Assembly: GCA_963674755.2 (NCBI GenBank)
Contig: CAXXVS010000002.1
Coordinates: forward strand, 2,176,001 to 2,240,000
Direction: 5' to 3'
From: Desulfobacterales bacterium
GTDB taxonomy: Bacteria > Desulfobacterota > Desulfobacteria > Desulfobacterales > UBA5852
Length of the DNA stretch: 64,000 nucleotides
Below the pieces are notes generated by a model. The model was not told where the DNA came from, made no database searches, and was given only the letters and a program-made list of their open reading frames with translations. The translations under genes and the position numbers were made by a program. Shown in pieces: positions 25,077 to 52,314 of this stretch (positions within the stretch are counted from its first letter, which is position 1; every line of letters begins with the position of its first letter).

Positions 25077-26513
25077 ATGTCTGACAAATCAATTTCTCGG
25101 CAGATGGCGGAATTTGCTGTTAGTCTGAACTATGAAAATCTTCCGCAAGATGTTATCACCGCCGTGAAACGATTCCTGTATGATTCGATCGGTTGTGCCT
25201 ATGGGGGGATGAAAACCCGGGATGTAAAAACCATGCTTCAAATCTATCAGGAAATGGGCGGACAGCCGGAATCCCGTGTGATCGGGTTTGGCGATCGACT
25301 ACCGACGGTAAGCACGGCCCTAATCAACGCATTGATGATAAGGGCATTGGATTTCAACGATATCTACTGGAAAGAAGATCCCAGCCACCCCAGCGATCTG
25401 ATCCCTGCGGCTTTATCCGTCGCCGAAAAAGTGGACGCATCAATGAAAGCGGTGATTGTCGCCATCGTTCTGGCGTACGAGTTTGAACAGCGATTGTGCC
25501 TGTTTGCCAAGCCGGGCGTTCGTGAAAGGAAGTGGCACCATGCGACCTTGACCCAATTTGTTTCCCCTATCGTCGCCGCAAAAATCCTCGGCTTAACCGT
25601 CGATCAGATGGTCAATGCCATTGGTATCGGCGGATGTCATAACTACACCGTTGGATGCCCCACCGCCGGAAGACTGACCATGATGAAGAACACGGTGGAT
25701 CCCATGGCGGTGCAAGCGGGTGTGTTGGCCGCCTTGATGGCTCAAAGGGGCTACACTGGAACGGAAAAGGTCTTCGATGGCAAAGAGGGGTTCATGGATG
25801 CATTCATCGGTTGGAATGCTAACGAAGAAACGCTCCAGCCCACGGAGAATGAAGGCCGTGACGGCGTGTCTACCTGGACTTGGGATATCGACGCCCTGAT
25901 CGGGAATCTGGGTGAAGGCTATAAGATTCTGGAATGCGGGATGAAAGCATTCCCCACCGAGGCATTGACTCACACGCATATTTCATGTGTGTTGAAGGCC
26001 GTGATCGACAATGCGTTGAACTACACAGATATCGAGGAAGTCAGGGTGACCGCCTCTGCCCAGGCCTTTGACATCCTGTTCGATCCGGCAAAGTACAGAC
26101 CCCAATCACGTGAGACGGCCGATCATTCATTGCCGTATTGCCTGGCGGCGGCAATTGTGGACAGGAAAGTCACTCCCCAGTCTTTCTCGGCGGATAAGCT
26201 GAAAGATCCCGCGATTCTCGAAGTAATCGATAAAATAAAAGGCGAAGCCTCATTGGAATTTGAGAAAATGTTTCCTGCGAAACAGCCGTCAAGGGTCGTG
26301 ATCGCGACCACTGACGGACGATCGTTCGAGGAGTATCTCGACTATCCCATGGGAGATCCACGTCAGCCCATGACCACGCAGAACTTAGAGGACAAATTCA
26401 ATGGCTTGTCGGGTGACATGCTGGGCAGGGAGCGTTTGGCCGAAGTGAGAGACGCAATCTTCAACTGTGAAAACCTCTCTGCCAGAGACTTCATGTCGGC
26501 ATTGGTGGTTTGA
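25077..26513 (+). CDS. MmgE/PrpD-family protein (2-methylcitrate dehydratase-like)
   Basis: RALDFND, HPSD, WHH, KAFP, RETADHSLPY, GDPRQP. Confidence 0.9.
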   Translation: MSDKSISRQMAEFAVSLNYENLPQDVITAVKRFLYDSIGCAYGGMKTRDVKTMLQIYQEMGGQPESRVIGFGDRLPTVSTALINALMIRALDFNDIYWKEDPSHPSDLIPAALSVAEKVDASMKAVIVAIVLAYEFEQRLCLFAKPGVRERKWHHATLTQFVSPIVAAKILGLTVDQMVNAIGIGGCHNYTVGCPTAGRLTMMKNTVDPMAVQAGVLAALMAQRGYTGTEKVFDGKEGFMDAFIGWNANEETLQPTENEGRDGVSTWTWDIDALIGNLGEGYKILECGMKAFPTEALTHTHISCVLKAVIDNALNYTDIEEVRVTASAQAFDILFDPAKYRPQSRETADHSLPYCLAAAIVDRKVTPQSFSADKLKDPAILEVIDKIKGEASLEFEKMFPAKQPSRVVIATTDGRSFEEYLDYPMGDPRQPMTTQNLEDKFNGLSGDMLGRERLAEVRDAIFNCENLSARDFMSALVV

Positions 26514-26577
26514 ACATAACCTCCATGATGCGACAACAGGGATAATTCGGTTCGACAGGCCACCTGATCAACGGGCA

Positions 26578-26890
26578 TTATTTGGTAATCTGACAAATCC
26601 AGTCAAAAGCGGTTCCGCGCTTGATTTTTTTAAGGTGCAGACAGGTCTTGTATAGACCAGCATCATACGTGCAGTTGACCAGTTCGACCGGTTTGCCATG
26701 TTGGTCATACATGATTCTCTCGGTGAGCAGGGTCAGATTGCCGGGGAGGATCCCCAAATGTTCGGTCGTCTCTTCGTCGGCAAACGATGCTTCGATGGTC
26801 TGGAAGGCCTCGGTGAAATGAATATTCAGGTCATCTTCCAGAATCTTCAGCAACGGTTTGTCAAACAAGGCCTCCTCTTCTATCTGCTCC
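26578..26890 (-). pseudogene. C-terminal UTRA-domain fragment of a GntR/HutC-family regulator
   Basis: FTEAFQTIEASFAD...LLTERIMYDQHGKPVEL; no HTH and no start of its own. Confidence 0.7.
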
Positions 26891-27283
26891 CGCGACGATG
26901 GCCTCGATGAGCTGTTTGCCCGTTGCATTTTCCCGCTAGGCGATGGCCAAAGCCGCCGCCATGATCGCAACACCGGGGTGGGCATTGGCAAACCGGTGCC
27001 CATCATCCATGTCCAGGACATGTCCCTGGATGCCGTTTAACAGGGCCGCGTTGAGAACTGGCAGTTTTCTGCCGTCACCGATGATGGTCGCTTCTTCTGC
27101 GCCACCCTGATTGAAAATCGGGGCGGTAACGATGGGTGACAACCCCAGTCTGCTGCCGGCCAGGGCCATGCCCATGAAATCCAGCAAACAGCGTTTCACC
27201 TGATGAACAACCTGAACCGGCAAATCTTCAAATTTTATTTTTACTAAAAAATCTGCCAATATATCTCGTATTTTGGTTTCCAT
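26888..27283 (-). pseudogene. N-terminal fragment of a MmgE/PrpD-family gene
   Basis: HVLDMDDGH...HPG; TAG at 26936-26938, then homology continues (RENATGKQLIEAIVAG) to the junction with the UTRA fragment. Confidence 0.8.
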
Positions 27284-27509: not shown

Positions 27510-29396
27510 TCAAGCTTTCATCGTTATTGATTCACCCAATAATTTTTTTTTAATAATGGAGGTATTGGTCAATAGAAACGGGACTAAAATGCCAAGCCCG
27601 ACGACATCCGAAACCACCCCTGGCAGGATCATGGTTATTGCTCCCGCACCAAGCACGACGCGCCAGAAAAGATTGGTCTTTTTTTGATAAAATCCCACCA
27701 GTGCGATGGACAGCATCCACAGACCCGCCATGGCCGTGGTAAACGAAAAAAGAATCACATACCAATGGCCAAGTCCGAGCAGGGAATTGCCGTAGACGAT
27801 GATGTAGGGGAGCAAAAAACCGGTGAAACCGAGACGAAACGCCTGGAGCCCCGCCTTGAAGGGATCGCATCCAGCGATGCCCGCCGTAGTGTACGCGGCC
27901 AGCGCAACTGGTGGCGTGATGGGGGCGTAACAGCAGAACATGAATACGAAGAAATGCGCCACCAGCAACGGGAGGCCCATTTGGACAAGACTCGGTGCAA
28001 CGGTAACCGCCATGACGATGTAACATCCGGTCGGTGGCAGCCCCATTCCCAGAACGAGGGCAATCAACATGGCAAATATAAGGCCGAGAAATAGATGGCC
28101 TTGCGCCGCGCTCATCAGAAGATCGGAAAGCTTCAACCCCAACCCGGTCAGGCCCAACATGCCGATGATGATTCCAGCCGTCGCACACGCCACCGAAACC
28201 ACCAAAATTTTTCGAGGGGTTTCAATCAGCGCATCGAACAGGTGTTTTAGCGGCACCCGAAGTTCCGGCTTGAAAAAATTATAGACGAGCGTGGTGATGA
28301 TTAAAATTAAGGCCGAAAACAGCGCCGCGCGCAGTGGGGAGACGCGCAGTACTGAGAGCGATAAAACCAGGACGCCGAGCGGGATAACCAGCCGCAGGCT
28401 TTTTAGAACGGCCTCTTTTTTGTCCGGAATCTCCTCATCCGGCAGCCTCGACATATTCCCCTTGCGGGCTTCATTGCCAACGACAAAAATCAGTGCGGAA
28501 TAAAAAAGAACTGCAGGGATGATCGCGTGAACAATAATCTTGGCGTATGGAATGCCAGTAATATCGGCCATAACAAAGGCCGCCGCCCCCATTACCGGCG
28601 GCACCAATGAGGCCCCCGATGAGGCGACGGCCTCTATGCCGGCCGCCAGGGTAGGGCTATATCCCACTCTTTTCATCATCGGAATGGTGAACGCTCCCGT
28701 CGTGGCAGCATCGGACACGGGGCTGCCGGAAACCATGCCCACGGTCACGCTTGAAAAAATGCCGACCTTTGCGGGACCGCCTTGTAATTTGCCCGTAAAT
28801 GCGTTGGCAAGGTTGATAAAAAGATCCCCCACACCAGATTTTTCCATGAATGTGCCGAACAAAACAAAAAGAAAGACGTAGGTGGCCGCCACACCCAGGG
28901 GGATGCCATAGATGCCTTCCGTGGTCAGGCACAACTGGGAAACGATTCGCTCAAAATCCCGCCCCGAGTGTCCTAAAGGGTCCGGCAGAAAATTCCCAAG
29001 GTAGCAATACAGGAGAGAAAAAACCCCAAGCAGGGTCATCGTTAGACCAACGGTTCGTCGGGTTGCTTCCAGCAAAACAACTAGGGTCGTGAAACCGATA
29101 ATTAGATCCAGCGTATTGGGATCGCCGGCGCGATAAAAGAGATCATCGAAAACCAGATATAAATATAAGCCGCTAGAGATAGACATTAATGCCAAAGGGA
29201 TGTCGATCAAATAAGTGAGTTTCGATTTTTTTATGGCAGGGAAAAAGAAAAATACCAGCACAAGGACGAATGACAAATGAATGCTGCGCTGTAAAAGGGC
29301 AGTCATTAATCCGTGGGTTGCAGTAAAGATTTGAAAAAGCGTCAATAGCAACGAAATGGCCATGATGGCTTTTGCCGCTGCTTTTTTAGAAGTCAT
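27510..29396 (-). CDS. TRAP transporter fused 4TM/12TM permease (TAXI-associated)
   Basis: LEATRR, EGIYGIPLGV, GGPAK, PPVMGAAAF, GMGLP, TPPVALAA. Confidence 0.92.
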   Translation of the reverse strand: MTSKKAAAKAIMAISLLLTLFQIFTATHGLMTALLQRSIHLSFVLVLVFFFFPAIKKSKLTYLIDIPLALMSISSGLYLYLVFDDLFYRAGDPNTLDLIIGFTTLVVLLEATRRTVGLTMTLLGVFSLLYCYLGNFLPDPLGHSGRDFERIVSQLCLTTEGIYGIPLGVAATYVFLFVLFGTFMEKSGVGDLFINLANAFTGKLQGGPAKVGIFSSVTVGMVSGSPVSDAATTGAFTIPMMKRVGYSPTLAAGIEAVASSGASLVPPVMGAAAFVMADITGIPYAKIIVHAIIPAVLFYSALIFVVGNEARKGNMSRLPDEEIPDKKEAVLKSLRLVIPLGVLVLSLSVLRVSPLRAALFSALILIITTLVYNFFKPELRVPLKHLFDALIETPRKILVVSVACATAGIIIGMLGLTGLGLKLSDLLMSAAQGHLFLGLIFAMLIALVLGMGLPPTGCYIVMAVTVAPSLVQMGLPLLVAHFFVFMFCCYAPITPPVALAAYTTAGIAGCDPFKAGLQAFRLGFTGFLLPYIIVYGNSLLGLGHWYVILFSFTTAMAGLWMLSIALVGFYQKKTNLFWRVVLGAGAITMILPGVVSDVVGLGILVPFLLTNTSIIKKKLLGESITMKA

Positions 29397-29532: not shown

Positions 29533-30498
29533 TTATTCGTGATACGCGTTTTTTTCTTTATAGTATTTAATAGCTCCGGGGTGAACCGGTATCAAAGTAG
29601 GCGTAGCATTCTCTAATGTTGTTTCTCTTAAAGAAGGATGAATTGCATTGAGCTCATCTTTATGTTCAAAAACCGCTTTGACAAATTTATATACCACATC
29701 CTCAGGAATCTCTGGTCTACAAACAAGAATCGTTTTAGCTGCTACGGTATCAGTATCTTGGTCTACTCCTTTATAAGAACCACCGGGAATTGTCGCTTTT
29801 ACCAAGTATGGATAGGCAGCGACGACGGCATCACTCTCTTTTTCGGAAAAAGGAACAAGCCTTATTTTGTGTGTCATAGATAGGCTCGTGATTGAGGAAT
29901 TCGGTATGGGAGAACCAATAAATTCCGCTGAAATTGTTTTGTCTTGAAGGGCTTCAGTAGCTTCTGTAAACGATAAAAATTCAGGCTTGAAATCATCGTA
30001 TGAAATTCCTAAAGCTTTCAGAATTGCCCGTGATTTAACTTCAGTCCCGGATCCTGGAGAGCCTACTCCGATACGCTTTCCTTTAATATCTTCAATCGTT
30101 TTAATATCACTGCCGGCAAGTGTAACAAGATGAACGGGTTGGGTATACATGTTGAAAAGCGCCCTGACATCAATTTTATGGTCGAAATGTTTAGATTTTT
30201 CATAACCAAAGAAGGCATGGTAGGTTACGTCATAAGAAACCGTTGCCATTTCAATCTTTTTTTTATCGAGGAGCTTATAGTCTTCAACGGAACCGCCGGT
30301 TGACTCTACCGTAACGCTCAAATCCGGGACATATTTGCTGACGATATTCGCGATAGCACCTCCATACGGATACAGTCCTCCTCCGGTGCCCGCCGTTCCA
30401 ATGGACAGACGAGTGGTTTCAGCCATGGCGCCTGTCATGCCAAGACTCAGCAATGCCAAGCATGTGATCAGACCTACAACAAACCGTTTCGGTTCCAT
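29533..30498 (-). CDS. TAXI-family TRAP solute receptor
   Basis: Signal peptide, IGTAGTGGGLY, STGGSV, GSPGSGT, HPGAIKYY; start at 30498 has an AGGAG RBS. Confidence 0.92.
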   Translation of the reverse strand: MEPKRFVVGLITCLALLSLGMTGAMAETTRLSIGTAGTGGGLYPYGGAIANIVSKYVPDLSVTVESTGGSVEDYKLLDKKKIEMATVSYDVTYHAFFGYEKSKHFDHKIDVRALFNMYTQPVHLVTLAGSDIKTIEDIKGKRIGVGSPGSGTEVKSRAILKALGISYDDFKPEFLSFTEATEALQDKTISAEFIGSPIPNSSITSLSMTHKIRLVPFSEKESDAVVAAYPYLVKATIPGGSYKGVDQDTDTVAAKTILVCRPEIPEDVVYKFVKAVFEHKDELNAIHPSLRETTLENATPTLIPVHPGAIKYYKEKNAYHE

Positions 30499-30706
30499 AA
30501 CCATTCTCCTTTTTTGAATAATACGATTTGCCTCACCATTATTTGATTTAAGCCACATCCCATGTCGCGCGATGAGATCAATGTGGCGTTCCGACACCTG
30601 GCAGTTATCCCCAGGCGCATCGAGTAAATCGGTGCTCTCTTAGCTTATTCGACAGTGCCATATCCATGTTCACCGAGAATCTGATTCATTGTTTATTGAC
30701 TTGCCT

Positions 30707-30724
30707 ATTAAAATATCATGCCAA
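30707..30724 (-). promoter_or_regulatory. Sigma54-like promoter (non-canonical -12) of the TAXI-TRAP operon
   Basis: TTGGCATGATATTTTAAT, 17/18 identical to the site at 50152-50169. Confidence 0.55.
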
Positions 30725-31120: not shown

Positions 31121-32917
31121 CTACTTGTTGAGCAGCCCACCTTTGCGGTAGATATTCATCTGGACATCGGAAAAAAGGCCCTGGACTTCATCTCCGGATG
31201 GTAGCCTGATTTTACCGGTGACAAGGTCCACATCGATCCGTTGTCCGGTCTCGAGTCCGTTGCCGATCAACCTGGCGCAGAGGATGGGAAACCCCTTGTT
31301 GATCGCATTGCGTTCGTAGATTGCGCCGAAGGACTCGCCGATGATGCACGAGATGCCCAGGCTCTCGAAACAATCGACCGCCTGTTGCCTCGACGACCCG
31401 GCGCCGAAATTCTTGGGTACCACCACGATATCACCGGGCTTGGCCTTCTTGGCAAAGTCCTCGTAGCCGGCCAGATTATTGAAGGTGTACTGGCCCATTT
31501 CATTGATGTCGGTGATTGTCAGGTAGCGGTTGTGATAGATCATGTCGGTGTCGATGTCGTCCTCGTCGATGACCCAGACCTTTCCCGAAAAGCGGGTCGG
31601 TCGGTTGCCGACGGCGATGACCTTGGAGGACCCTGAAGCTGTGCGTATGTCTTTGGGAAACTGCGCCGGTATGGCAGGAATTGCATCGGCCGGGACGATT
31701 GCTCCGGCAATCGCCGATGCGGCCACTGTCGCCGGAGATGCCAGGTACACGTCTCCTTTGCCCTGCTTGCCCGCGAAGTTGCGGTTGCCCGTGCTGATCG
31801 TCACCTCTCCGGGACCGTTCTGTCCGATCTGACCGGCTGCGCAGCCAGCGCAGCCGGCGTTGCCCACCAGGGCCCCCGCCCTCTTGAAAATGTCGATGAA
31901 GCCTTCCTCCAAACAGCGCATCCAGATGTCGTCCGTGCTCGGCACGATCTTGAGTACCACGCCGGGGGCGATCTTTCTGTCTTTGAGTATTTCCGCCGCG
32001 GCCTTGAGATCCTCGTAGCGTCCGTTGGTGCATGAGCCGATAAACGCGGAATCGATCTTCGTACCTGCCAAAGCCTTGACCTCTACGACATCTTCCGGAT
32101 GACCGGGACGCGAGACCATAGGCCCAACTCCGTCCACATTTATCTCGATGGTTCTATCGTATGCCGCGTTATCATCGGCCAGCACGGATACTACTTTTTG
32201 ACCGCTGACCTTGGATGCGTATGCTACCACTTCCTGACTGGGTGGAAACAGGGCGATAATGCCCGCCATCTCCGTGGCCATGGATGCCATGGTGATCCTT
32301 CCGTCCAGGCTGAGCGTTTCCACGACATCCCCGTAAAACTCAGCCGAATAGCCGAGCAATGTGTTGGCGCCAAGCTGCCTGAGCACTGTCAGAACCAGGT
32401 CTTTGGACGTGGCCGACGGCGACGGCTTCCCCGTGAGGATAATTCTAGCCGACGGCGGCACCTTGAACCAGACATGACCGTATGCCCAGGCGTGAGCAAC
32501 ATCGACATCACCCATACCCTGCCCGAACGCGCCGATGGCACCAACGATGTTGGCGTGGGAGTCGGTGGAAACGAAAGCAGAGCCGGGCACCACCATCCTG
32601 GCGTCGATGGCCACATGGGTCCCGATCCCTTTGTCGACATCGAATACCGTTATGTTATGCTCGCGGGCGAAAATGCGGCAAATCTGCTGATTTGTGGCAT
32701 ACTTTGGATCCGAACCACCGGGATTGCAGTCAAATGTAAAGTAGGTCTTGCTCGCATCGTCGACGCCGAGCCCGCTGTCCTGAAGATTCTTGACCACGTT
32801 GGCGCCACCGAAATCGCGGGCCGCTCTGATGTCGATAGTAATGTCCACGATTTCGCCCGGGCAGACGTCACGCCCGCAATGTGCGCCGAGGATTTTCTCG
32901 ATTATTGTCTTACCCAT
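31121..32917 (-). CDS. Fused LeuC/LeuD-type (isopropylmalate/homoaconitate hydratase family) [4Fe-4S] hydratase
   Basis: TDSH, IGSCTNGR, CAGC, STGNRNF, then a swivel domain DIDTD...NFGAGSSRQQA...FGAIYERNAIN in one chain. Confidence 0.9.
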   Translation of the reverse strand: MGKTIIEKILGAHCGRDVCPGEIVDITIDIRAARDFGGANVVKNLQDSGLGVDDASKTYFTFDCNPGGSDPKYATNQQICRIFAREHNITVFDVDKGIGTHVAIDARMVVPGSAFVSTDSHANIVGAIGAFGQGMGDVDVAHAWAYGHVWFKVPPSARIILTGKPSPSATSKDLVLTVLRQLGANTLLGYSAEFYGDVVETLSLDGRITMASMATEMAGIIALFPPSQEVVAYASKVSGQKVVSVLADDNAAYDRTIEINVDGVGPMVSRPGHPEDVVEVKALAGTKIDSAFIGSCTNGRYEDLKAAAEILKDRKIAPGVVLKIVPSTDDIWMRCLEEGFIDIFKRAGALVGNAGCAGCAAGQIGQNGPGEVTISTGNRNFAGKQGKGDVYLASPATVAASAIAGAIVPADAIPAIPAQFPKDIRTASGSSKVIAVGNRPTRFSGKVWVIDEDDIDTDMIYHNRYLTITDINEMGQYTFNNLAGYEDFAKKAKPGDIVVVPKNFGAGSSRQQAVDCFESLGISCIIGESFGAIYERNAINKGFPILCARLIGNGLETGQRIDVDLVTGKIRLPSGDEVQGLFSDVQMNIYRKGGLLNK

Positions 32918-33525: not shown

Positions 33526-33645
33526 AGTTTGGCCGCGATCAAGGCGCGTGAAAAATTGAACCGCAGGCATATAGTTGATATTCCGAAGATTAAATATTTC
33601 GCACAACGGCGATATCGGGCAAATTGGCCATTTATGGATGGGCAC
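33526..33645. repeat. Structured inverted-repeat element, copy C (left end truncated)
   Basis: Core CAAGGCG...AGGCATA-N7-TATTCCGA...GCACAACG; right end ATTTATGGATGGGCAC resembles the copy A TIR. Confidence 0.7.
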
Positions 33646-34603: not shown

Positions 34604-34774
34604 TGTAAAACTCCTAGTTGAATAATTCCCGAGAAAGACGCATTCGCGCGCTCTAGGCGGCAACTTCACTTCTGGCAGATTGTCCAATAATGGTCTGGGG
34701 AATGAGAACCGCGAACAACATCGACGTGCATTTCTTGATAGACTCCCTCCTTCATGGTTGTGGTATCCAGTGCA

Positions 34775-41944: not shown

Positions 41945-41945
41945 T

Positions 41946-43309: not shown

Positions 43310-43393
43310 TTAGGATACGATCCTTTATCCTGCTTCCATGAGTGGTTCGACTCCATCAGATGCGCCTATTAGGGAATGAACCGCGCAAACTCC

Positions 43394-44953
43394 TCATGGG
43401 ACGACTTTGCGGACGGCATCTATCACCGTACCATCAACCCATTTCACAATGGCGACGATCTCCTCATCGAGTTTCGGTTTTTCAGGCTTGCCGCAAATTT
43501 GTTCCGCCATGGCCTTGAGTTCTTCAATGGGTTTGATCGGCAAGGAAGATCCCTTGACGGCATCCATCAGATCTTGTCGCTTGGGATTTATAGCGATGCC
43601 GCGTTCGGTGACGATGACATCGATCATTTCACCAGGGCCGCAGAGGGTTGTTACCTCATCGAGAATCACCGGGATGCGCCCTCTGAAGAGCGGGAGAGGG
43701 AAGATAACGCATTTTGCTGCCAGGCAGTTCTGCCACCCGCCGATGCCGTGCAATAGATATCCGTCGGAATGGGTCACCACATTGCCGTTGAAATTCAAAT
43801 CCACCTCGGTGGCACCCAATATGACGACATCCAGCATGGAAGCAAAGTTGCCTTTGCCATGATAATTATAGCTGGTGAAAGGGCTGGTATCGACGTGGTT
43901 TGTGTTCTCGCGCATGGACCGGACGCCGTCGAGGTCGAAGGTTTGTCCATCCAGGATATACTTGGTCAGGTTACTCTCCAGCATTTCCACCAGGTACTTA
44001 TTGCTGCCGCCCCGAGCAAATGCGCAGGCGAGTCCCTTGCGTTTCAGAATTTCTCCGAAATAGATGCCGATGGACAAGGCGGTTCCGCCGGCGCCGGCTT
44101 GAAAGGAAAAGTGGTCATGAAACAATCCGGCGGCCTCACAGAACTGGGCCGTCATCTCCGCCAGAAGCAGGCGGTCCGGACTTTTCGTGACCTGGGTAGT
44201 GCCGGAAATGATTTTTTCAGGAATTCCAACCTTGTCCACCTTTACGGTATAATCTACGTAGTTTCCTTGAATCTGCCAGGGAATACAGGGAAAGGGAACA
44301 AGGTTGTCTGTCACCACGATAGTTTTATCGGCGTACTGCGCGTCCGCTAATGCGAAGCCCAGAAGGCCGCAGGCCGTCGGCCCGTAAAGCCCGTTGGCAT
44401 TCCCAAAACTATCCGCTGCCGGTGCGGCGATCACCGCGATATCAATATGCAAATCGCCGTCCTGGATCGCCTGGTACCGTCCGCCGTGTGATCTAAGCAC
44501 ACCGGTGCCGCGCATGTGACCCTGAGAGCAAAAACGGCCGAGGTCCCCGTTCATACTGCCTTCGATGTGATGAATAACGCCGCTTTTTAAATGGTCTATG
44601 ATGGGGTTATGGCAGGGAAACGAAGCTGACGGCGCCCAAACCAAATCTTTGAGGCCCAACTGCGCAGCGATCTCAAACACCTGGTTTGCAATGAGATCAC
44701 CATTGCGAAAATGATGATGGGTCGAAATGGTCATTCCATCTTTCAATCCCGCCTTGATCAAGGCCGATTTTAAATCCGGCTGCAATTTGTTTCCATCAGC
44801 CGGATAGTCGGCGCAGGTGGCGATGGGAGGGCCGTATTTGCGCCCCGACGGCCTGTATTTCCCAACTCCTCTGAATGGTTCCAGCGCTTTACCGTTCGCT
44901 ATAACAGGAACCATCCGACCTGCCGTGTTTTGAACACAATTCATATTACTCAT
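43394..44953 (-). CDS. citF: Citrate lyase alpha subunit (CoA/ACP transferase)
   Basis: TISTHHHFRNGD, RSHGGR, FQAGAGG, LGATEVD, VTERGIAINP. Confidence 0.9.
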   Translation of the reverse strand: MSNMNCVQNTAGRMVPVIANGKALEPFRGVGKYRPSGRKYGPPIATCADYPADGNKLQPDLKSALIKAGLKDGMTISTHHHFRNGDLIANQVFEIAAQLGLKDLVWAPSASFPCHNPIIDHLKSGVIHHIEGSMNGDLGRFCSQGHMRGTGVLRSHGGRYQAIQDGDLHIDIAVIAAPAADSFGNANGLYGPTACGLLGFALADAQYADKTIVVTDNLVPFPCIPWQIQGNYVDYTVKVDKVGIPEKIISGTTQVTKSPDRLLLAEMTAQFCEAAGLFHDHFSFQAGAGGTALSIGIYFGEILKRKGLACAFARGGSNKYLVEMLESNLTKYILDGQTFDLDGVRSMRENTNHVDTSPFTSYNYHGKGNFASMLDVVILGATEVDLNFNGNVVTHSDGYLLHGIGGWQNCLAAKCVIFPLPLFRGRIPVILDEVTTLCGPGEMIDVIVTERGIAINPKRQDLMDAVKGSSLPIKPIEELKAMAEQICGKPEKPKLDEEIVAIVKWVDGTVIDAVRKVVP

Positions 44954-46160
44954 GACTTCCTCTCCAATCCTCCGACAGTTTACCCAGTTGAATTGCTGCC
45001 ATAATGGTTCGCTGGGCTTTCTCCACAACGGGCGCATCGATCATTTTGGTGCCGACTGAAACAACCCCTTTACCTTCTCCAAGGGCTTTCTCGAATGCCT
45101 TGGCGATGGTCTTGGACTTCAGGATCTCCTCCTCGTCCGGAGAATACCCATCATGGATGATCCTGATTTGCCGCGGGTGAATACAGCCCATGCCTTCGAA
45201 GCCTAATGTTTTTGAACGCTGAACCGTCTGCTTCAGACCTTCGGTGTCACCCACGTCGGAAAAAACGGAATCGATGGCCTGGAGGTCGTACGCTTTGCAC
45301 ACATTGACCAGATGGCTGCGTGCATAGAGCGATTCAATGGCCTCGGTGGACCGTCTGACGCCAAGATCGGCCGTGTAGTCCTCCAGTCCGATGGCTAAGG
45401 CGACGATATTCTTCCCGGCCGCGGCAATTTTTTCGGCGTTAAGAACCCCTTTGGCGCTCTCGATGATCGGCATGAGGAAAACTTCCTGCTCCGATTTCTC
45501 ACCTGACTTGATCGCCTCGATGCGGTCATTGACTTGTTCGATTTCTGCGCCGGATTCGCATTTGGGAATGAGAATGACGTGCACGTTGTGGGGCACCACC
45601 TGATCGAGGTCCGTCAGCCCCCGTGGAATCTGGTTGATACGCACCATTCGCTCGGCACCGTAAAAGTCGACCTGCCGCAGTGCATTGCGAACCAACAGGC
45701 GGGCTTCATCCTTTTTATCCACCGCCACGGCATCCTCCAGATCCAGAATTACGGCGTGGGGGTGATGAATACCCGCGTTGATCATCATTTTGGGGGTATT
45801 CCCCGGAAGATAAAGACGCGACTGGCGCAACTGCTTGCGGGCCGATCCATACTGGTTGGCCGGCAGTATATCCGGCAAGAAATTGTGCTCAACCGGGAAT
45901 GCCTTCTTGATGCAGGCTTCAATCCTGGCGGCCAGGACAAAATCCAGCGCGCCTGCGTCTTCGATATGGACATCGCCTTTCTCGATACTGAAAAAGTCAA
46001 AGACCTTTCTGGCCGTTGCGGCAATGGCCTTGCCAAAGAGAATATCGACCCGGCTTTCCACGCGGATAGCGAGGTCTTTGTCCGCCTCCGGGTCGAAGGT
46101 TATCAGACAATCACCGCGTACCTTGGTTCCTTTGTTGCCTGCTGTAACCGGATATTTCAA
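44946..46160 (-). CDS. CitD(ACP)-CitE (citryl-CoA lyase) fusion
   Basis: N-terminal ~90 aa CitD-like (IEDAGALDFVLAARIE); C-terminal CitE (LYLPGN, DLEDAV, VRIN, IPK, IESA, CIHPRQ, MIDAPV). Confidence 0.88.
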   Translation of the reverse strand: MKYPVTAGNKGTKVRGDCLITFDPEADKDLAIRVESRVDILFGKAIAATARKVFDFFSIEKGDVHIEDAGALDFVLAARIEACIKKAFPVEHNFLPDILPANQYGSARKQLRQSRLYLPGNTPKMMINAGIHHPHAVILDLEDAVAVDKKDEARLLVRNALRQVDFYGAERMVRINQIPRGLTDLDQVVPHNVHVILIPKCESGAEIEQVNDRIEAIKSGEKSEQEVFLMPIIESAKGVLNAEKIAAAGKNIVALAIGLEDYTADLGVRRSTEAIESLYARSHLVNVCKAYDLQAIDSVFSDVGDTEGLKQTVQRSKTLGFEGMGCIHPRQIRIIHDGYSPDEEEILKSKTIAKAFEKALGEGKGVVSVGTKMIDAPVVEKAQRTIMAAIQLGKLSEDWRGSHE

Positions 46161-46162
46161 TT

Positions 46163-47137
46163 TTAGGCTCCTTTGTTCAATACTGATGCGGTGTGTGAAA
46201 ACACCGCGTCGGGTCGCTGGACGACGGTGATACCGGCATCCTCCAGGACGTTTCGTTTATACGCATAGGATTCTTCTTCATTGCGGATCATGGCTCCCGC
46301 ATGGCTCTGGGCCACGCCGGCTTTCGAGAACTTACCCCCCAGGAACAGCACAATGGGTTTGGTGATCGCCCCGGTCCTCACGGCTGCCGCCAGATCATTT
46401 TCCTGGGTGGTGCCGGTTTCGCCGTAAACGGCCATTACCTTGGTGCGGGGGTCTTTTTGAAAAGCACGTGCGGCATCGAGGAGGGTGACGCCGGGAATGG
46501 GATCCCCGCCGATGCACAGGACGGCACTGACGCCTGGATAGGTCTCGTCCCACAGGGGACCAAAAGATCCATCAGGACGCGGCCCGGATAGATGAGGGCG
46601 GCAATGAAACGCGCCGAAGAGTTGGGACAACCCGCCGGAGCGGGAGATGATGCCGACACAGCCGGGCAGATAGTTTTTCCTGGCCCACTCCGCATTGCCG
46701 CCGATCAGCCCGAACAGATAACCGGTTGTGTCCAGCATGCCCACCGTATTGGGCCCCAGGTAGAGGCTTCCTTTTGCCCGGGCGTATTCCTTGACGACGA
46801 TCTGGTCGTGGATCGGTACGCCGTCGGCCGTGAACACCAGGAATCTAATCCCGGCCTCCATGGCGTCCATGGCCGCCGCCTTAACGGCACCGGCCGGGAC
46901 GTAGGTGACTGCGCAGTTGATCTCGGGAATGGCTGCCACGGCCTCGGCGGCGGAATTGAAAACCGGTACGCCGTCGACCGACTGCCCGCCCTTTCCCGGG
47001 GTACAGCCGGCGAGAATCGGCGTTCCCACCGCTTTCATCGTTCGGCTGGCATTTCTGCCCATCTTGCCGGTGATGCCGAAAACCAGAACGTTTGGGGTTT
47101 CAATATCAGCCAGATGTTTTAGAATTCCGTCCATCAA
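46163..47137 (-). CDS. Succinyl-CoA synthetase alpha-like CoA ligase subunit
   Basis: GITGKMG, TPGKGG, GPNTVG, SRSGG, IGGD, SHAGA (phospho-His). Confidence 0.85.
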   Translation of the reverse strand: MMDGILKHLADIETPNVLVFGITGKMGRNASRTMKAVGTPILAGCTPGKGGQSVDGVPVFNSAAEAVAAIPEINCAVTYVPAGAVKAAAMDAMEAGIRFLVFTADGVPIHDQIVVKEYARAKGSLYLGPNTVGMLDTTGYLFGLIGGNAEWARKNYLPGCVGIISRSGGLSQLFGAFHCRPHLSGPRPDGSFGPLWDETYPGVSAVLCIGGDPIPGVTLLDAARAFQKDPRTKVMAVYGETGTTQENDLAAAVRTGAITKPIVLFLGGKFSKAGVAQSHAGAMIRNEEESYAYKRNVLEDAGITVVQRPDAVFSHTASVLNKGA

Positions 47138-48621
47138 TTCATCTCCGGAATATCGAGCTTTATGCGCAGCTCCCCATTGCCCTCGAGCAGGGATACGGTC
47201 TCACACAAGAGGCAGCCGATGCATCGGGCGTCTTGCGCCGGTTCCACCCATCGTCTATCCGGATTCCACTTCAGGAACTGCGTCGGACAAATCGTGACGC
47301 ATGGGGGTGGGGTCGGCTGCGTCCATTTCTGCGGATCGAAATAAAATTCACCCGGTGGGAGATCGACGCGGAAAGCGGGTTCTCCGCCGGGTTGATCTTC
47401 CGGCACGACGGTCATCCGTTTTTCCGATGCCATCTGCGCAATATGGTCGATCATGGCACTGGGGAACAGGTGGGCCGGAAAGGTTTTCACCTTAACCGGC
47501 AGACTCGGCATGACCCTTTCCATCAGGGCCTGGGCTTTGTCCTCCTCGGTACCCCCGAACCGCAACAGGGAGGGCAAGGGGGTCGGGCTTTCACGCAGCG
47601 CTTTCCAGACCGCCGCAGCCAGGTGATATTGATTTTGAAACGCCATGCCCGATCCGGTGAGCAGCAGGACTTGAGGGGTATCGAGCGCCAGAATGGCCCG
47701 CAGCAATCGATAACTCTTAAAGGCCGAGAGTCCGCCTGACGTATCGGATTCGTTCGCACTGTAAATATCCTTTCGTCCGCCCACGGCCATCTCCCATAGC
47801 ATCTTGCCGCCGCCCCCGCACAGATTGGTGGCCACGCGGTATGCACCGGCAGGGACCGGCGCGCGATTTTCACGGATGAAACCGGTTCCGGCCGGTTCAA
47901 GGGCGTTGATTTTTTCGACGATGCGCTCGATACGGGTCTGCTCCTCACGACCGGCGTCATGGATAGTGAACAATGGCTTATCGGCTTTGGCGATGGCATG
48001 CCTTTCGAATTCGGCACGGCAATCGATCACCAGCAAGGATCCGTCTTCCCGCACGCCCACGGGGTTGACTTCCAGTACGGTGAGTTTGTAGCGAATAAAG
48101 GTATTGATGATGCCTTCGAGAAAGGTGGCCAGGGCCTCGGGATGATCCAGTTCGGCGAAATGACCGGTGAGCATGTCTGCCGTGGGCGGACGAAGCAGGG
48201 AGAAAGATATTTTCTTCAGGCTTCCGGACCGCTCTTCAACCCCGGATCCGCCCTGGGACGAAAACATGAGGATGCCGCCGGGAAGTTTGTTGGCGCTGCC
48301 AAAGTCCAATATGCAGCCCACATAATACTCGTGACAAAGTTTGGCTGCGGATGTCACCAGCAAGCCTTCAACAGGCCCTTGCGCCTTTGCGGCGAACATC
48401 TCCTCGATATCCGATGCCATTTGAAGGGGATCTTCCACCCGCCGGACGAGTCCCTGGGCGGCCCGGCTGGTCGCACCCGTAATTTGGGCCTTCAGGTAAA
48501 CCGGGGGGGGGAGCCGATCGCGGCCTGGATCGTTTTGCGTATTGAGAAACACGCCGTCCACCAAAGGGACGCCTTGGTTGGCGAGCAGGCGGCGCGTCTT
48601 GTATTCCGGTAGCGCGGTCAT
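47134..48621 (-). CDS. Succinyl-CoA synthetase beta-like ATP-grasp subunit with C-terminal ferredoxin-like domain
   Basis: EY, KAQ, GGSGVE, EVNP, GGGG, N..DTSG, RFGG; C-terminal CVTICP...CIGCLLC. Confidence 0.8.
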   Translation of the reverse strand: MTALPEYKTRRLLANQGVPLVDGVFLNTQNDPGRDRLPPPVYLKAQITGATSRAAQGLVRRVEDPLQMASDIEEMFAAKAQGPVEGLLVTSAAKLCHEYYVGCILDFGSANKLPGGILMFSSQGGSGVEERSGSLKKISFSLLRPPTADMLTGHFAELDHPEALATFLEGIINTFIRYKLTVLEVNPVGVREDGSLLVIDCRAEFERHAIAKADKPLFTIHDAGREEQTRIERIVEKINALEPAGTGFIRENRAPVPAGAYRVATNLCGGGGKMLWEMAVGGRKDIYSANESDTSGGLSAFKSYRLLRAILALDTPQVLLLTGSGMAFQNQYHLAAAVWKALRESPTPLPSLLRFGGTEEDKAQALMERVMPSLPVKVKTFPAHLFPSAMIDHIAQMASEKRMTVVPEDQPGGEPAFRVDLPPGEFYFDPQKWTQPTPPPCVTICPTQFLKWNPDRRWVEPAQDARCIGCLLCETVSLLEGNGELRIKLDIPEMN

Positions 48622-48638
48622 GGTCTGTTCCTTGTGAC

Positions 48639-49778
48639 TTATCTGATGAACGCATTCCCGCTCATGAGCAGGCGAGCTGTCCGGCTAAGTAGAATTTTTT
48701 GAACCACGCCCTCACTGGATATCAAAGTCTCCAAACTCATCGTCCCGCTGGGATGGCCGATCCTGATCTGATAGGTTTCGCCGAGACCGGCGTTTTCGGA
48801 AGTCATGAATTCCGAGGCGATCGTGCCGGGCAGGCAGCACGCCGCCGCGGTAGCGACCGAGCCGGTACCGGGGTAGGCCTTGGAAAACAGTCCTCTGGTG
48901 ATGCTTCTGGAAAACAGGTCGTAACCGTCGGCAGGGATATCGTCTCCATTCAACGTTGCGTAATCACGCGGCGCACCGACGATAAACAGCAACGGATTCA
49001 TCTTGATTCTGAACTCGTCGGAATCCAGAGTGGCATCGATATAGCCCAGGGAGATGGCAATCGAGGCCCGAATCGTCTCCAGTTTTTTTACCAGGGTCCG
49101 GTTTTCCTGAAGCGTGACAATATCCGTCGAATCGTCCATGCCCACATCGGACGCGCGAATAAAGATGCAAAGGTTGGCCAGATCGACGACCGACGCGTCT
49201 ATCTTACCAAGATTGGGCACGTCATAGGTGTCGCATGGGGAGCCGGTCGGCAGAATGCCCCGGCCGAGGATACAGCCGGAGAAATCGCTGAAATCCAGGT
49301 CCAGACGCGCCGCCGTACCCGGGACCCCGCCGATTGAATAGCCGCCATCGATCTTGGGCTGAGAATTCTCCACCGGCACGGTAGCAATCAGGGTCCTGCC
49401 GGTATTCACCTGGTGGATTCTGACCTTGGCGGCTTCGCCTTCGGTGGCGACGTATTTTTTATGCACGGCGTAAAGCGCCGCTCCGGCCGAGATATTGCCG
49501 CAGTTGCTCTTCCAGTCGATAAAGGGCAGGGTGATGTTGACCTGACCGAACAGGTAATCGATATCACAATCGTCCTTTGTCGGCGCGCCCATCACGGCAA
49601 CCTTACTGGTCAATTTGTCGGCCCCGCCGAGACCGTCGATTTGCCTTGCATCCGGGCTGCCAAACAAGGATAGAATTTCACGGTCGAATCGATCTTTTTC
49701 GCTTGGCAACGCTTTTCTATCGATGAAAATACCTTTGCTGGTGCCGCCCCTGATAATATCGCACGGTATCTGCTTCAT
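48639..49778 (-). CDS. prpF: PrpF-family isomerase
   Basis: RGGTSKG, QIDGLGGA, TSK, NCGNIS, HPSG, RTAR. Confidence 0.9.
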   Translation of the reverse strand: MKQIPCDIIRGGTSKGIFIDRKALPSEKDRFDREILSLFGSPDARQIDGLGGADKLTSKVAVMGAPTKDDCDIDYLFGQVNITLPFIDWKSNCGNISAGAALYAVHKKYVATEGEAAKVRIHQVNTGRTLIATVPVENSQPKIDGGYSIGGVPGTAARLDLDFSDFSGCILGRGILPTGSPCDTYDVPNLGKIDASVVDLANLCIFIRASDVGMDDSTDIVTLQENRTLVKKLETIRASIAISLGYIDATLDSDEFRIKMNPLLFIVGAPRDYATLNGDDIPADGYDLFSRSITRGLFSKAYPGTGSVATAAACCLPGTIASEFMTSENAGLGETYQIRIGHPSGTMSLETLISSEGVVQKILLSRTARLLMSGNAFIR

Positions 49779-50151
49779 TTTTTTCTCCTTTAATTGATAG
49801 TGTTATTTTCAGATGTCCCACTCGAACATTGCAGAAAAAACTTCCCCGTACTCATTAGGCGACCTTGAAACGGGTGTTGAATGGGATAGTGTGGATCATC
49901 CGGTCGGTAATCCGCTTGAGTTGGCTGAAGTCGGCTAACCCCAGACAGGTATGGTAAAGCCAGTGGTAGTACCAGCTCGGCAGGACAGCCGCCGGACCGA
50001 TAGCAGAATGGCTTTCTTTATTCTCTTCATTTGCCTGTCCTCGAACATCACCTTTCACGGATAACCGGATAAATACTTTTTCTTTGGCCTTTTTCGCACC
50101 GCTTGAGGCGTCCGGCCGTATCTATGGTAATTTTGGCTTTTAGCCCTCCTA

Positions 50152-50169
50152 ATTAAAATATCGTGCCAA
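50152..50169 (-). promoter_or_regulatory. Sigma54-like promoter of the prpF-ligase-cit-kor operon
   Basis: TTGGCACGATATTTTAAT, divergent from the sigma54 activator gene. Confidence 0.6.
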
Positions 50170-50391
50170 TTTGCAAACAAATTCTAAATTGTCCATTTTC
50201 TTGATTCCCGATGTTTCGTAATTTGCCTCATATTGCATATCTATTCGAAATAAAGGAGATTTTAGACTTATGAGGAGGAGCCTGACGCGATGAGCAAAGG
50301 CGCATGTTCATCCCTTGATTTGCATTGACACGAAATATAGTTGCATGTATGTTCCACATAATGAAATATATTTGAAACACAGGGGTTGCAC

Positions 50392-52314
50392 ATGCAAAAC
50401 GACATCGTCATTGGAATCATTTCCGCTACCCGGGAATTCATCGAATGTGCATCTTACGTCGCGGATCAAAAGAAAATTAAAATCTTGATTTCGGAAGCCG
50501 GTCTCGAAGCCAGTGTTGAACACGGGCAAAGGATGGAAAAGGAGGGCGTCGATGTGGTCATCGCCTGGCGGGCGGGAGCGGAAATTTTGCGCAAAACACT
50601 CAACATCCCCGTCTTGACCGTTCAATTTACCGCCTATGATTTGATCGCTCACATCAAAGACGCCAAAACGTTGGGCAATAAAATCCTAGTGACCGCCTAT
50701 CGCTCCAAGCCACCGCACCTGGATCTGCTGAGCCAAATATTTGATGTCAAGATCACCGCCTGTATTTACAACAACTCCAAAGAACTCGAAAATTTGATCA
50801 AGCAGGCGAAAACAAACGAATACGATGTGATCATTGGCGGCGGGATTACCCTGAGATTGGCCAATATATATGGACTGAAAAGCGTCGCCTACCGTCCGGC
50901 GGTTGAAAGCATGGAATCCGCTTTCGACGATGCCATCGCGATTGCACGCATCGCCCGGCAAAAGCACCAATGCGAATCCGACTACTCGTCCATCATCGAC
51001 GCATTCAACGAGGGGGTCGTTTCAATCAACGATAACGGTGTGGTGTCTTCCATCAATCAATTCGCCCTCAAAGCGCTGAACCTGGAAGTCGGCGATGTCG
51101 TTGGCAAAAATTTCCGGTCGATTTTCCAAAGTTCATCCATTGACACAGTCCTTGCCACCGGCAACGCATTGTGGGGAACCATCGAGGTGATCAACAACAA
51201 CAAATTCATTACGAATTATGTGCCGTTGATCAACCAGCAACAACCCATTGGCGTTGTTTTGATGTTCAAGGACATTTCCACCCTGATTAAAGAGGAAAAC
51301 CAAGTCAGACGCTCGCTGATCCGCAAGCACCGGGCCAAATACAAGATCGCGGATTTCATCCATAAATGCGATCTCATGAAGCGCATGATAAAAAAAGTCA
51401 AAACGTTTTCGAAAACCGATGCCACCGTTTTAATCAGTGGAGAAACCGGAACCGGAAAGGAAATCATCGCACATTCGATCCATCAACTCAGCAACCGTAA
51501 AAAAGGATCCTTTATTTCCATTAATTGTGCTGCCATTCCGGACAATCTGTTGGAGAGCGAATTGTTCGGGCACGAGCAGGGCGCGTTCACTGGATCCAAA
51601 AAAGGGGGGAAAATCGGATTGTTCGAATTGGCCCACAATGGGACCATCTTCCTGGATGAAATTGGATCGATGCCGGTCGGTTTGCAGAGCAGTCTGCTCA
51701 GGGTGTTGCAGGAGAGGGAAGTGATGCGCATCGGCGGAGAGCGGCTGATTCCCATCGATGTGCGTGTTATCGCCGCGGCCAACCAAAATATTCCCAAGGC
51801 GGTCAAAGAGGGTGCCTTCAGGGAAGACCTTTATTTCAGGCTCAGCGTACTGACGGTTTTTATTCCACCGCTTAGGGAGCGATTGGCGGACCTGGATTTA
51901 ATCGTCGACTTTTTAATTGAAAAATATTCCAGACAATTTAGGACATCGCCATTCAAGGTGCCGGTACTTTTCATTGAGCGCCTCAAACGAATGCAATGGC
52001 CGGGCAATATCCGCCAACTTCAAAATTTCATCGAAAAGATGGTTATCCTATCGGAGGGGAATTTCTCATCCGATGTGTTCGATGACATTTACCAGGAGTT
52101 GGAGTACTATTCGGTTTGCGAAGGCCAGGAAGATGATAAACTGATTTCAGTGACGCCTGACACAGTCGCCAACAAAATAATAGACGATGAAGCCAGAACC
52201 ATTTTGGATGCCTTGGAGAAATCCAAACTGAACAAGAAAAAGGCCGCCGATTACCTCGGCATCAGCAGGACCACACTCTGGCGTAAGATGCGGACTCTGA
52301 AAATAAAAATCTAA
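50392..52314 (+). CDS. PrpR-like sigma54-dependent activator (PrpR_N, PAS, AAA+, Fis HTH)
   Basis: GETGTGKE, ESELFG, GAFTGS, FLDEIG, WPGNIRQL, LGISRTTLWRK. Confidence 0.92.
   Translation: MQNDIVIGIISATREFIECASYVADQKKIKILISEAGLEASVEHGQRMEKEGVDVVIAWRAGAEILRKTLNIPVLTVQFTAYDLIAHIKDAKTLGNKILVTAYRSKPPHLDLLSQIFDVKITACIYNNSKELENLIKQAKTNEYDVIIGGGITLRLANIYGLKSVAYRPAVESMESAFDDAIAIARIARQKHQCESDYSSIIDAFNEGVVSINDNGVVSSINQFALKALNLEVGDVVGKNFRSIFQSSSIDTVLATGNALWGTIEVINNNKFITNYVPLINQQQPIGVVLMFKDISTLIKEENQVRRSLIRKHRAKYKIADFIHKCDLMKRMIKKVKTFSKTDATVLISGETGTGKEIIAHSIHQLSNRKKGSFISINCAAIPDNLLESELFGHEQGAFTGSKKGGKIGLFELAHNGTIFLDEIGSMPVGLQSSLLRVLQEREVMRIGGERLIPIDVRVIAAANQNIPKAVKEGAFREDLYFRLSVLTVFIPPLRERLADLDLIVDFLIEKYSRQFRTSPFKVPVLFIERLKRMQWPGNIRQLQNFIEKMVILSEGNFSSDVFDDIYQELEYYSVCEGQEDDKLISVTPDTVANKIIDDEARTILDALEKSKLNKKKAADYLGISRTTLWRKMRTLKIKI

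Follow-up and report, generated by a model that had tools for sequence, protein, structure and literature searches.

A candidate free-CoA, citrate-lyase-type pathway for polycarboxylic acids in a gene island of a Desulfobacterales bacterium

Gene content of the island

The stretch of DNA analysed here (the window, 64,000 nt) comes from a Desulfobacterales bacterium (UBA5852; assembly GCA_963674755.2, contig CAXXVS010000002.1, positions 2,176,001 to 2,240,000 of the forward strand), whose genome measures 6.71 Mb and is 97% complete. Window positions 25077 to 52314 hold an island of transport, isomerase, hydratase, ligase and lyase genes, which a sequence-only reading had proposed to encode an anaerobic pathway for tricarboxylic or branched organic acids on free CoA. 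The gene identities were taken from Pfam and NCBIfam scans of the open reading frames (ORFs) of the window, with the family scan taking ORFs of at least 90 residues, and every gene named in that reading was found in its place. The features are collected in Table 1, where all coordinates are window positions.

The reading frames of the core genes are all intact, and the genes, which overlap or follow closely on one another, form three tightly packed units on the minus strand. Unit A runs in the order PrpF, SucC-like, SucD-like, CitD-CitE, CitF, KorD, KorA, KorB, and KorC, with several junctions that overlap or measure at most 20 nt; its Kor genes encode a four-subunit 2-oxoacid:ferredoxin oxidoreductase that includes a 72-residue two-cluster ferredoxin subunit. 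Unit B starts with an MmgE/PrpD-family gene (PrpD2), followed by a D-2-hydroxyacid dehydrogenase, an HD protein, and a fused LeuC-LeuD hydratase, in whose sequence three cluster cysteines are present. PrpD2, whose best solved relatives are IDS epimerase and IRG1/cis-aconitate decarboxylase, shares only 22% identity with PrpD1, the MmgE/PrpD-family protein at 25077-26513. No solved relative was found for the HD protein, and the protein atlas gave only generic HD clusters. Unit C consists of the TAXI binding protein and the fused TRAP permease (30597-27510).

Table 1. Features of the island and of its surroundings
Feature	Position	Strand	Basis and remarks
PrpR-type sigma-54 enhancer-binding activator (PrpR_N, AAA+, HTH_8)	50386-52314	+	Pfam, NCBIfam; divergent from PrpF operon
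Candidate activator half-site TGAAACA	50373		upstream of PrpF operon
Promoter motif TTGGCACGATATTTTA, -24/-12-like	50154-50169	-	upstream of PrpF operon
PrpF-family double-bond isomerase	48639-49778	-	Pfam PrpF, E 6e-90; first gene of unit A (operon 2)
SucC/ACL-beta-like ligase subunit, C-terminal one-cluster Fe-S tail	47134-48621	-	Pfam, profile, fold, alignment
SucD-like ligase subunit, CoA-binding, HAGA motif	46163-47137	-	4-nt overlap with SucC-like gene
CitD-CitE fusion: pseudo-ACP domain and HpcH/CitE C-C lyase	44946-46160	-	Pfam, NCBIfam, alignment
CitF, citrate-lyase alpha-type CoA transferase	43394-44953 (start 44953 or 44944)	-	TIGR01584
2-Oxoacid:ferredoxin oxidoreductase, four subunits	40599-43309	-	Pfam, NCBIfam
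Oxidoreductase subunit delta	43091-43309	-	
Oxidoreductase subunit alpha	41946-43094	-	
Oxidoreductase subunit beta	~41144-41947	-	
Oxidoreductase subunit gamma	40599-41138	-	
PEP-mutase/isocitrate-lyase-family remnant (PrpB/Dml type)	about 40122-40545	-	truncated, frame-shifted; directly 3' of KorC
SGL-type lactonase, signal-peptide-like N-terminus (secreted)	38800-39846	-	Pfam; candidate member only
Second PrpR-like gene remnant	38413-38621	+	206-nt direct repeat of 52005-52211; 70-78% identical to activator residues 541-610
PRiA4-like mobile debris	36566-36973		
Perfect palindrome TGAAAC-N8-GTTTCA	36451-36470		upstream of unit B; one of only four genome-wide
Promoter motif TTGGCACGATAATTGA	36280-36295	-	upstream of PrpD2 operon (unit B)
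MmgE/PrpD-family PrpD2	34775-36163	-	Pfam, NCBIfam; first gene of unit B (operon 1)
D-isomer-specific 2-hydroxyacid dehydrogenase, PGDH-related	33632-34687	-	Pfam, NCBIfam
HD-domain protein	32933-33508	-	Pfam
Fused LeuC-LeuD [4Fe-4S] hydratase	31121-32917	-	Pfam, NCBIfam; specificity loop YLTI
Promoter motif TTGGCATGATATTTTA	30709-30724	-	upstream of TAXI-TRAP genes
TAXI solute-binding protein	29533-30597	-	Pfam, NCBIfam
Fused TRAP permease	27510-29396	-	Pfam, NCBIfam
UTRA (GntR/HutC-type) regulator fragment and third MmgE/PrpD fragment	26578-27283	-	Pfam
MmgE/PrpD-family PrpD1	25077-26513	+	Pfam, NCBIfam; candidate member only
DDE transposase	23457-24881		
tRNA-Arg(ccg)	20883-20958	+	left edge of variable region

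A promoter motif common to the three units

Each of the three units is preceded by a 16-nt motif, which was spotted by eye first and then tested by pattern search of the window and the genome. An exact search for the pattern TTGGCAYGATAWTTKA gave three matches in the window, where 0.31 would be expected even if two mismatches were tolerated, and exactly three in the whole 6.7-Mb genome, all of them in the island, where each lies 5' of one unit (PrpF-Kor, PrpD2-LeuCD, and TAXI-TRAP) and on the strand of that unit. The upstream regions of PrpF and TAXI have TTGGCA(C/T)GATATTTTAAT in common, and that of unit B has TTGGCACGATAATTGA. The -24 half of the motif (TGGCAC) agrees with the sigma-54 consensus, and rpoN is present in the genome. 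About 200 nt 5' of each motif lie TGAAACA/TGTTTCA half-sites, of which the three upstream regions hold five in about 1.2 kb, compared with 0.116 per kb genome-wide. Since the promoter motif is common to the three units and found nowhere else in the genome, they probably form one regulon.

Between the predicted promoter and the start of PrpF lies a leader of about 375 nt (49779-50153, minus strand), which contains a 67-residue ORF (49855-50058) with no family match. The Rfam scan of the window yielded only the tRNA, with no riboswitch in the long PrpF leader.

The fused CitD-CitE protein lacks the carrier serine

In the alignment with Escherichia coli CitD, the CitD domain of the window reads V-R-G-D, with an arginine in the column of the serine that we take to be the site of the phosphoribosyl-dephospho-CoA arm (Ser14 in E. 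coli). All eight stand-alone CitD-type proteins compared (that of E. coli and seven from a 400-genome sample of the phylum) show [E/Q]-S-[G/N/S]-D at this site. The 11 fused CitD-CitE proteins other than that of the window all carry arginine (10) or lysine (1) in the serine column. The maturation families CitC (PF08218), CitG (PF01874), and CitX (PF03802) gave no matches in the whole genome, with a positive control in E. coli, which confirms the absence of citC, citG, and citX noted for the window and extends it to the genome. The arginine in the serine column together with the missing maturation genes makes the classical acyl-carrier mechanism very unlikely here, judged from these comparisons, and backs the proposal that the enzymes would work on free CoA.

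CitF itself reaches the citF level, scoring 510.3 bits against the TIGR01584 equivalog cut-off of 501.45 bits, and the CitE part of the fusion contains an HpcH_HpaI domain. The fused form is widespread, with at least 120 homologues, all of at least 56% identity among the matches listed, and its 90%-identity cluster comprises 27 member sequences from several sources.

In the phylum sample, two genomes (G405 and G245, loci L107 and L112) encode a stand-alone, serine-bearing CitD-type acyl carrier protein (ACP) without giving a match to the CitG family; a third genome, which belongs to the same genus, does have such a match.

An Fe-S-tailed SucCD-like ligase

The SucC-like protein is composed of an ATP-grasp domain, a middle region with no Pfam match, and a cysteine-containing C-terminal tail. 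The tail cysteines C445, C467, C470, and C473 are invariant in 67 homologues and form a one-cluster ferredoxin-like pattern, to which the Fer4 matches are weak (E 0.004). Its SucD-like partner carries a HAGA motif, presumably the feature of a phosphohistidine subunit. The AlphaFold model of the SucC-like protein (pLDDT 85.7) gave Foldseek matches with E values of 1e-22 to 1e-20 that are about equal for the SucC beta subunit, human and archaeal ATP-citrate lyase, and Hydrogenobacter citryl-CoA synthetase, so that the fold search did not separate these three enzymes. In the profile search, SucC aligns to the ATP-grasp part only and ACLY to residues 115-391; no Citrate_bind or Ligase_CoA Pfam match was found in the SucC-like protein.

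A role as the housekeeping succinyl-CoA synthetase was rejected, since the four other tested genomes that carry the ligase all have a canonical SucC above the curated cut-off as well. The ligase family is present in at least four phylum-level groups, as labelled, and its 90%-identity cluster holds 16 member sequences from several sources.

Conservation of the gene neighbourhood

We compared 75 loci of the ligase, 55 from species-representative genomes and 20 from metagenomes. Of the 55 genome loci, 51 have the SucC-like gene next to the SucD-like gene, and the other four reach a contig end. An HD gene and a fused LeuCD gene, the latter 59-78% identical to that of the window, lie 5' of the ligase in seven genome loci (five labelled Planctomycetota or Myxococcota, two uncultured Enterobacterales) and in two of the metagenome loci. 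The annotated loci L002 and L005 have a second LeuC/LeuD and a Citrate_synt-domain protein between HD-LeuCD and the ligase, with 2-oxoacid oxidoreductase genes nearby in L002 and Iso_dh in L005.

These loci bear on an alternative in which the ligase and CitE would serve central metabolism, as a step resembling ATP-citrate lyase, and not the catabolism of an imported acid; the ferredoxin oxidoreductase and the hydratases would then belong to a segment of a reductive or branched tricarboxylic acid (TCA) cycle. In Planctomycetota and Myxococcota, the neighbours of the ligase do include a citrate-synthase-like lyase, 2-oxoacid oxidoreductase genes, Iso_dh, and a pair of aconitase-type hydratases, and the fold of the ligase is matched about equally by SucC, ACLY, and citryl-CoA synthetase. 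However, the module in the window shares its promoter motif with a dedicated uptake system and lies beside a substrate-type activator, the accessory island was not found in 11 same-genus genomes or in the 400 other genomes of the phylum sample, and CitF and the isomerase would be superfluous for carbon fixation, which leaves this alternative highly improbable.

The link between the ligase and CitD-CitE was traced through metagenome contigs. Seven SucC-like homologues (59-66% identity) match CitD-CitE homologues (61-70%) in source and in exact longest-contig size (27198, 8331, 9112, 16632, 11728, 9830, and 12113), and an eighth pair coincides at size 25671 (SucC-like 64%, CitD-CitE cluster 71%), so that about eight metagenome contigs seem to pair the two. 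As a control, the homologue table of PrpF shows no size coincidence with that of the SucC-like protein. A maximum-likelihood tree was built from 29 ligase sequences. In it, the window sequence forms a clade with eight of the nine CitD-CitE-paired rows (support 96/90), and the sister clade contains the citrate-synthase-linked rows (100/99). The rows of the tree were selected by their labels, without close homologues that lie on short contigs, so the tree speaks for an old association and not for exclusivity.

The sequence-only reading had named the lack of joint conservation as one of the findings that would refute it. The full gene set is indeed not kept together elsewhere, whereas a core of ligase and C-C lyase, in part with HD and LeuCD, is; of the pathway interpretation given there, the non-canonical chemistry, the use of free CoA, and the probable regulon are supported.

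Radical-SAM and DUF362 clusters occur in 34 and 28 of the 55 genome loci, respectively. In Fermentibacteria/Aegiribacteria (e.g., L009, 7922-12462), the ligase pair is preceded by radical-SAM and DUF362 genes, with no C-C lyase adjoining.

Acquisition, erosion, and occurrence in nature

The island is predicted to be horizontally acquired and to lie in a variable region of about 43 kb beside tRNA-Arg. Among 41 relatives the only full-length match to the fused CitD-CitE is the window's own, and the same holds for the ligase among the 401 genomes of the phylum sample; across the 12 same-genus genomes searched, the fused LeuCD and PrpF are represented only by paralogues of 33-39% identity. The nearest relative has a folC-like gene 93% conserved with the one left of the tRNA here; about 18 kb separate folC from the housekeeping leuC there, compared with about 61 kb here, and the right-hand ABC-transporter genes are not syntenic either. 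No att-like repeat of the tRNA-Arg end was found. After the tRNA follows a low-GC stretch (21000-24900, 36.5%) with an acyltransferase and the DDE transposase.

Several genes survive as remnants, none of which the sequence-only reading had mentioned. The regulator and PrpD fragments between PrpD1 and the TRAP permease suggest a former separate module. The PEP_mutase remnant behind KorC (40201-40545; Pfam E 2e-8, profile positions 4-59 of 240) makes it probable that the operon originally closed with a C-C lyase of a second kind.

Such debris raises the question of whether the island is a mosaic of unrelated or decaying modules, namely a TRAP uptake system, a hydratase/dehydrogenase operon, and a degenerate citrate-lyase operon without its accessory genes, that would not form a single pathway. 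The transposase, the PRiA4-like debris, the PrpD and UTRA fragments, the second PrpR remnant, and the truncated lyase gene would fit this explanation, as would the variable folC-leuC interval in the genus and a full gene set that was not seen elsewhere. Decay of the citrate-lyase operon would, however, not explain an arginine that is found family-wide in fused CitD-CitE proteins and is thus no local defect, nor the 90%-identity clusters of the ligase and CitD-CitE, which hold sequences from several sources. The promoter motif restricted to the three units, the intact and tightly joined core genes, and the RNA-library contigs described below also argue against a mosaic, which we consider unlikely.

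The region 43394-49778 is present in sequencing runs labelled rhizosphere, marsh, and marine-sediment metagenome and in RNA libraries labelled rhizosphere and root. Contigs of three RNA libraries (X16, X17, and X18, from two studies) match 43391-49808, from CitF to PrpF, with 93-99% identity; such contigs cannot prove transcription or rank genes. One of them extends to 50069, within the predicted PrpF leader. No RNA-library contig covers 50299-53945 (the PrpR gene and most of the ABC-transporter flank), an absence that carries no weight.

Proposed pathway

From the predicted functions, the island would import a C5-C7 polycarboxylic acid and degrade it anaerobically on free CoA, and the substrate would most likely be trans- or cis-aconitate or another citrate-type tricarboxylate from plant roots, a reading for which we see about as much chance of being right as wrong. 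The leaning towards a tricarboxylate is based on the CitF score above the citF cut-off and on the Iso_dh and citrate-synthase-like genes of the orthologous HD-LeuCD-ligase clusters. Enzymes of the MmgE/PrpD family have tri- and tetracarboxylates as substrates. Aconitate is abundant in grasses, and the habitat labels given above fit a plant-derived aconitate. The leaning is further based on the tar system, where PrpF-superfamily enzymes are proven aconitate isomerases according to the available part of the report (PMC11495376).

In the proposed route, the acid would be taken up by the TAXI-TRAP system, and the acid or a product of it may be sensed by the PrpR-type activator. The PrpF-type isomerase would shift the double bond, turning trans- into cis-aconitate, and the MmgE/PrpD protein and the Fe-S LeuCD-type hydratase would set the position of the hydroxyl group, giving a tertiary (citrate-type) or secondary (isocitrate-type) alcohol. 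The tertiary-alcohol acid could then be converted into its CoA thioester by CitF with acetyl-CoA, by the SucCD-like ligase with ATP, or by both, and the CitE domain would cleave the thioester into acetyl-CoA and a 2-oxoacid. For the secondary alcohol, the D-2-hydroxyacid dehydrogenase would carry out the oxidation. The ferredoxin oxidoreductase would convert the 2-oxoacid into an acyl-CoA, whose thioester energy could alternatively be harvested as ATP by the ligase.

With aconitate as the hub, each enzyme could be given a role. The hydratases would yield citrate and isocitrate from cis-aconitate; citrate would be cleaved by CitF, the ligase, and CitE, and isocitrate would pass via 2-oxoglutarate to succinyl-CoA by means of the dehydrogenase and the ferredoxin oxidoreductase.

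Evidence against the proposed pathway and the choice of substrate

The sequence-only reading had stated that the substrate cannot be read from the sequence; this stands, and two readings remain. In the second, which we hold to be possible at best, the architecture and the use of free CoA would be the same, and the substrate would be a branched C5/C6 dicarboxylate (itaconate, citraconate, mesaconate, methylitaconate/dimethylmaleate, or citramalate). The isomerase would turn an itaconate-type into a citraconate-type acid, LeuCD-type hydration would give citramalate or methylmalate, CitF or the ligase would form citramalyl-CoA, and CitE would release acetyl-CoA and pyruvate, with pyruvate or 2-oxobutyrate being oxidised by the ferredoxin oxidoreductase.

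A number of observations weigh against the tricarboxylate pathway proposed above, and those that concern the substrate speak for the dicarboxylate. The best solved relative of the window's PrpF is 3-methylitaconate isomerase (281 bits) and not PrpF (213 bits). The LeuD-like domain scores 105 bits to the small subunit of isopropylmalate/citramalate isomerase compared with 74 bits to homoaconitase, and its loop YLTI resembles the YLVY of the former and lacks the arginine of the YLRT of the latter. The CitE domain stays below the citE equivalog level (TIGR01588, 254.5 bits against a cut-off of 443.4) and also matches RipC_Ccl, the lyase model of the itaconate pathway (156.9 bits, cut-off 375). 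Nicotinate fermentation ends in an isomerase-hydratase-lyase tail, which the isocitrate-lyase-family remnant after KorC recalls.

On the other side, likeness to one solved enzyme may mirror phylogeny and not substrate, the CitE domain is fitted better by the citE model than by RipC_Ccl, and CitF scores above the cut-off for citF. Elsewhere, Iso_dh and citrate-synthase-like genes accompany the orthologous HD-LeuCD-ligase clusters, the citrate-synthase family using oxaloacetate-derived tricarboxylates, and the scanned ORFs include neither a CoA_transf_3 nor a MaoC-type gene as in the known itaconate route. By class of substrate, we put the chance of a tricarboxylate at about one half, that of a branched dicarboxylate distinctly lower, and that of any other acid lower still.

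The remaining points concern the tricarboxylate pathway as a unit. CitDE, CitF, and PrpF were found beside the ligase in none of the 75 loci; the link between the ligase and CitDE rests on coinciding contig sizes and not on readable DNA, and close PrpF homologues are not on contigs shared with the ligase. A ligase and a CoA transferase together are redundant for one activation step. Two of the four tested genomes with a stand-alone, serine-bearing CitD are also without a CitG match, so that a missing CitG alone is weak evidence for the free-CoA mechanism. The -12 half of the promoter motif (TTTA/TTGA) is weak and deviates from TTGC, the sigma-54 consensus, so that we only infer the assignment of sigma-54 promoters; the canonical pattern TGGCAC-N5-TTGC, searched with one mismatch, gave five matches, which is not above chance, and only one of them (36280) is a unit promoter. 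The pseudogene remnants indicate that the island is eroding. Finally, the sequence-only reading had counted PrpD1 and the lactonase among the pathway genes, for which no support emerged: neither has a TTGGCAYGATAWTTKA motif upstream or a conserved link to the other genes, and PrpD1 adjoins the regulator and PrpD fragments.

Comparison with known systems

Among the closest known systems is classical CitDEF (E. coli citCDEFXG), with which the island has in common a citF-level CitF, a CitE-type lyase domain, a CitD-like domain, and the order D-E-F. In contrast, CitD is fused to CitE here and has arginine in the serine column, the genome is without CitC, CitG, and CitX, a SucCD-like ATP-grasp ligase lies directly upstream, and the operon contains no oxaloacetate decarboxylase genes.

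A two-subunit SucCD-type ligase beside a citryl-CoA-type lyase is also found in the citryl-CoA synthetase (CCS) and citryl-CoA lyase (CCL) of Hydrogenobacter thermophilus and in ATP-citrate lyase (PDB IDs 6hxq, 6hxj, and 6qfb). The likeness to ACLY and CCS extends to profile and fold matches that span the whole beta-type subunit and to ligase relatives that adjoin a citrate-synthase-like protein. The ligase of the window differs from CCS in its low sequence similarity (E 1e-6 to CcsA by profile) and in its extra conserved Fe-S tail. Unlike split ATP-citrate lyase, the window has a CitE-type lyase together with CitF, and no citrate-synthase-homologous lyase occurs among its scanned ORFs.

The combination of a SucCD-type ligase with a CitE-family lyase on a free CoA thioester is likewise known from malate thiokinase, a SucCD-like ligase, and malyl-CoA lyase, a CitE-like lyase, and it recurs in a second module of the same genome. 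That module (C2:150000-162000, at 154-158 kb; L106, genes 4174-7819) comprises a GntR gene, a SucC-like gene with a weak Citrate_bind match, a SucD-like gene, an HD gene, and a CitE-like lyase, followed by GntR and fumarate-reductase/succinate-dehydrogenase genes, so that an HD gene, here between ligase and lyase, again accompanies the ligase-lyase pair. Its ligase is only 25% identical to that of the island, in the ATP-grasp part only, and the module lacks the Fe-S tail, the CitD domain, and the CitF of the island.

The AcnD-PrpF variant of the methylcitrate cycle, in the available part of its description (PMC5690661), resembles the island in its PrpF isomerase, aconitase-superfamily hydratase, MmgE/PrpD protein, and PrpR-type activator. 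The island differs in several features: PrpC and PrpE are absent from the window, as the sequence-only reading had noted (no Citrate_synt or AMP-binding family among the scanned ORFs), PrpB occurs only as a truncated remnant, the PrpD models reach at most 78 bits (cut-off 575), and PrpF scores 244.8 bits (cut-off 440.55). These differences, together with those from CitDEF, bear out the view that the chemistry is neither the methylcitrate cycle nor classical citrate fermentation.

The itaconate route Ict-Ich-Ccl, in what is available of its report (PMC12290011), also uses a CitE-family lyase to split a citramalyl-CoA-type thioester into acetyl-CoA and a 2-oxoacid. Here, the scanned ORFs contain neither a family-III CoA transferase nor a MaoC hydratase, and the RipC_Ccl score lies far below its cut-off. 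The tar system of Bacillus velezensis, as far as the available part of the source describes it (PMC11495376), likewise combines a PrpF-superfamily isomerase with a dedicated importer and an adjacent positive regulator. Its importer TarB belongs to the major facilitator superfamily and its regulator is TarR, compared with TAXI-TRAP and a sigma-54 PrpR-type activator here, and it feeds cis-aconitate straight into the TCA cycle, whereas in the island hydratases, a lyase, and a ferredoxin oxidoreductase are added.

In our literature search, no paper was found that describes the gene cluster or the fused CitD-CitE. We regard the island as a real and probably undescribed variant of citrate-lyase/ATP-citrate-lyase-type chemistry.

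Significance

Tentatively, CitD-CitE may be a carrier-less machine of the citrate-lyase type, in which the serine-less ACP domain would be only structural and CitF and CitE would turn over free acyl-CoA, with the Fe-S SucCD/ACL ligase supplying or harvesting the thioester. The ligase, so far uncharacterised, would have been paired at least twice with different C-C lyases, one citrate-synthase-like (Planctomycetota and Myxococcota) and one CitE-like (this island), and rhizosphere sulfate reducers would have arrived by convergence at an ATP-citrate-lyase chemistry for plant aconitate.

The promoter motif and the activator offer an immediate experimental handle on the system. If the proposal is true, the phosphoribosyl-dephospho-CoA arm, with its three maturation genes, would be dispensable for citrate-lyase-type enzymes, and, the fused form being widespread, many annotations as citrate lyase in genomes without citCGX would need a new reading. 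Linking an unnamed family of Fe-S-tailed ligases to C-C lyases bears on the evolutionary assembly of ATP-citrate lyase, and the island may provide a possible route by which sulfate reducers use plant organic acids in marsh and root-zone sediments.

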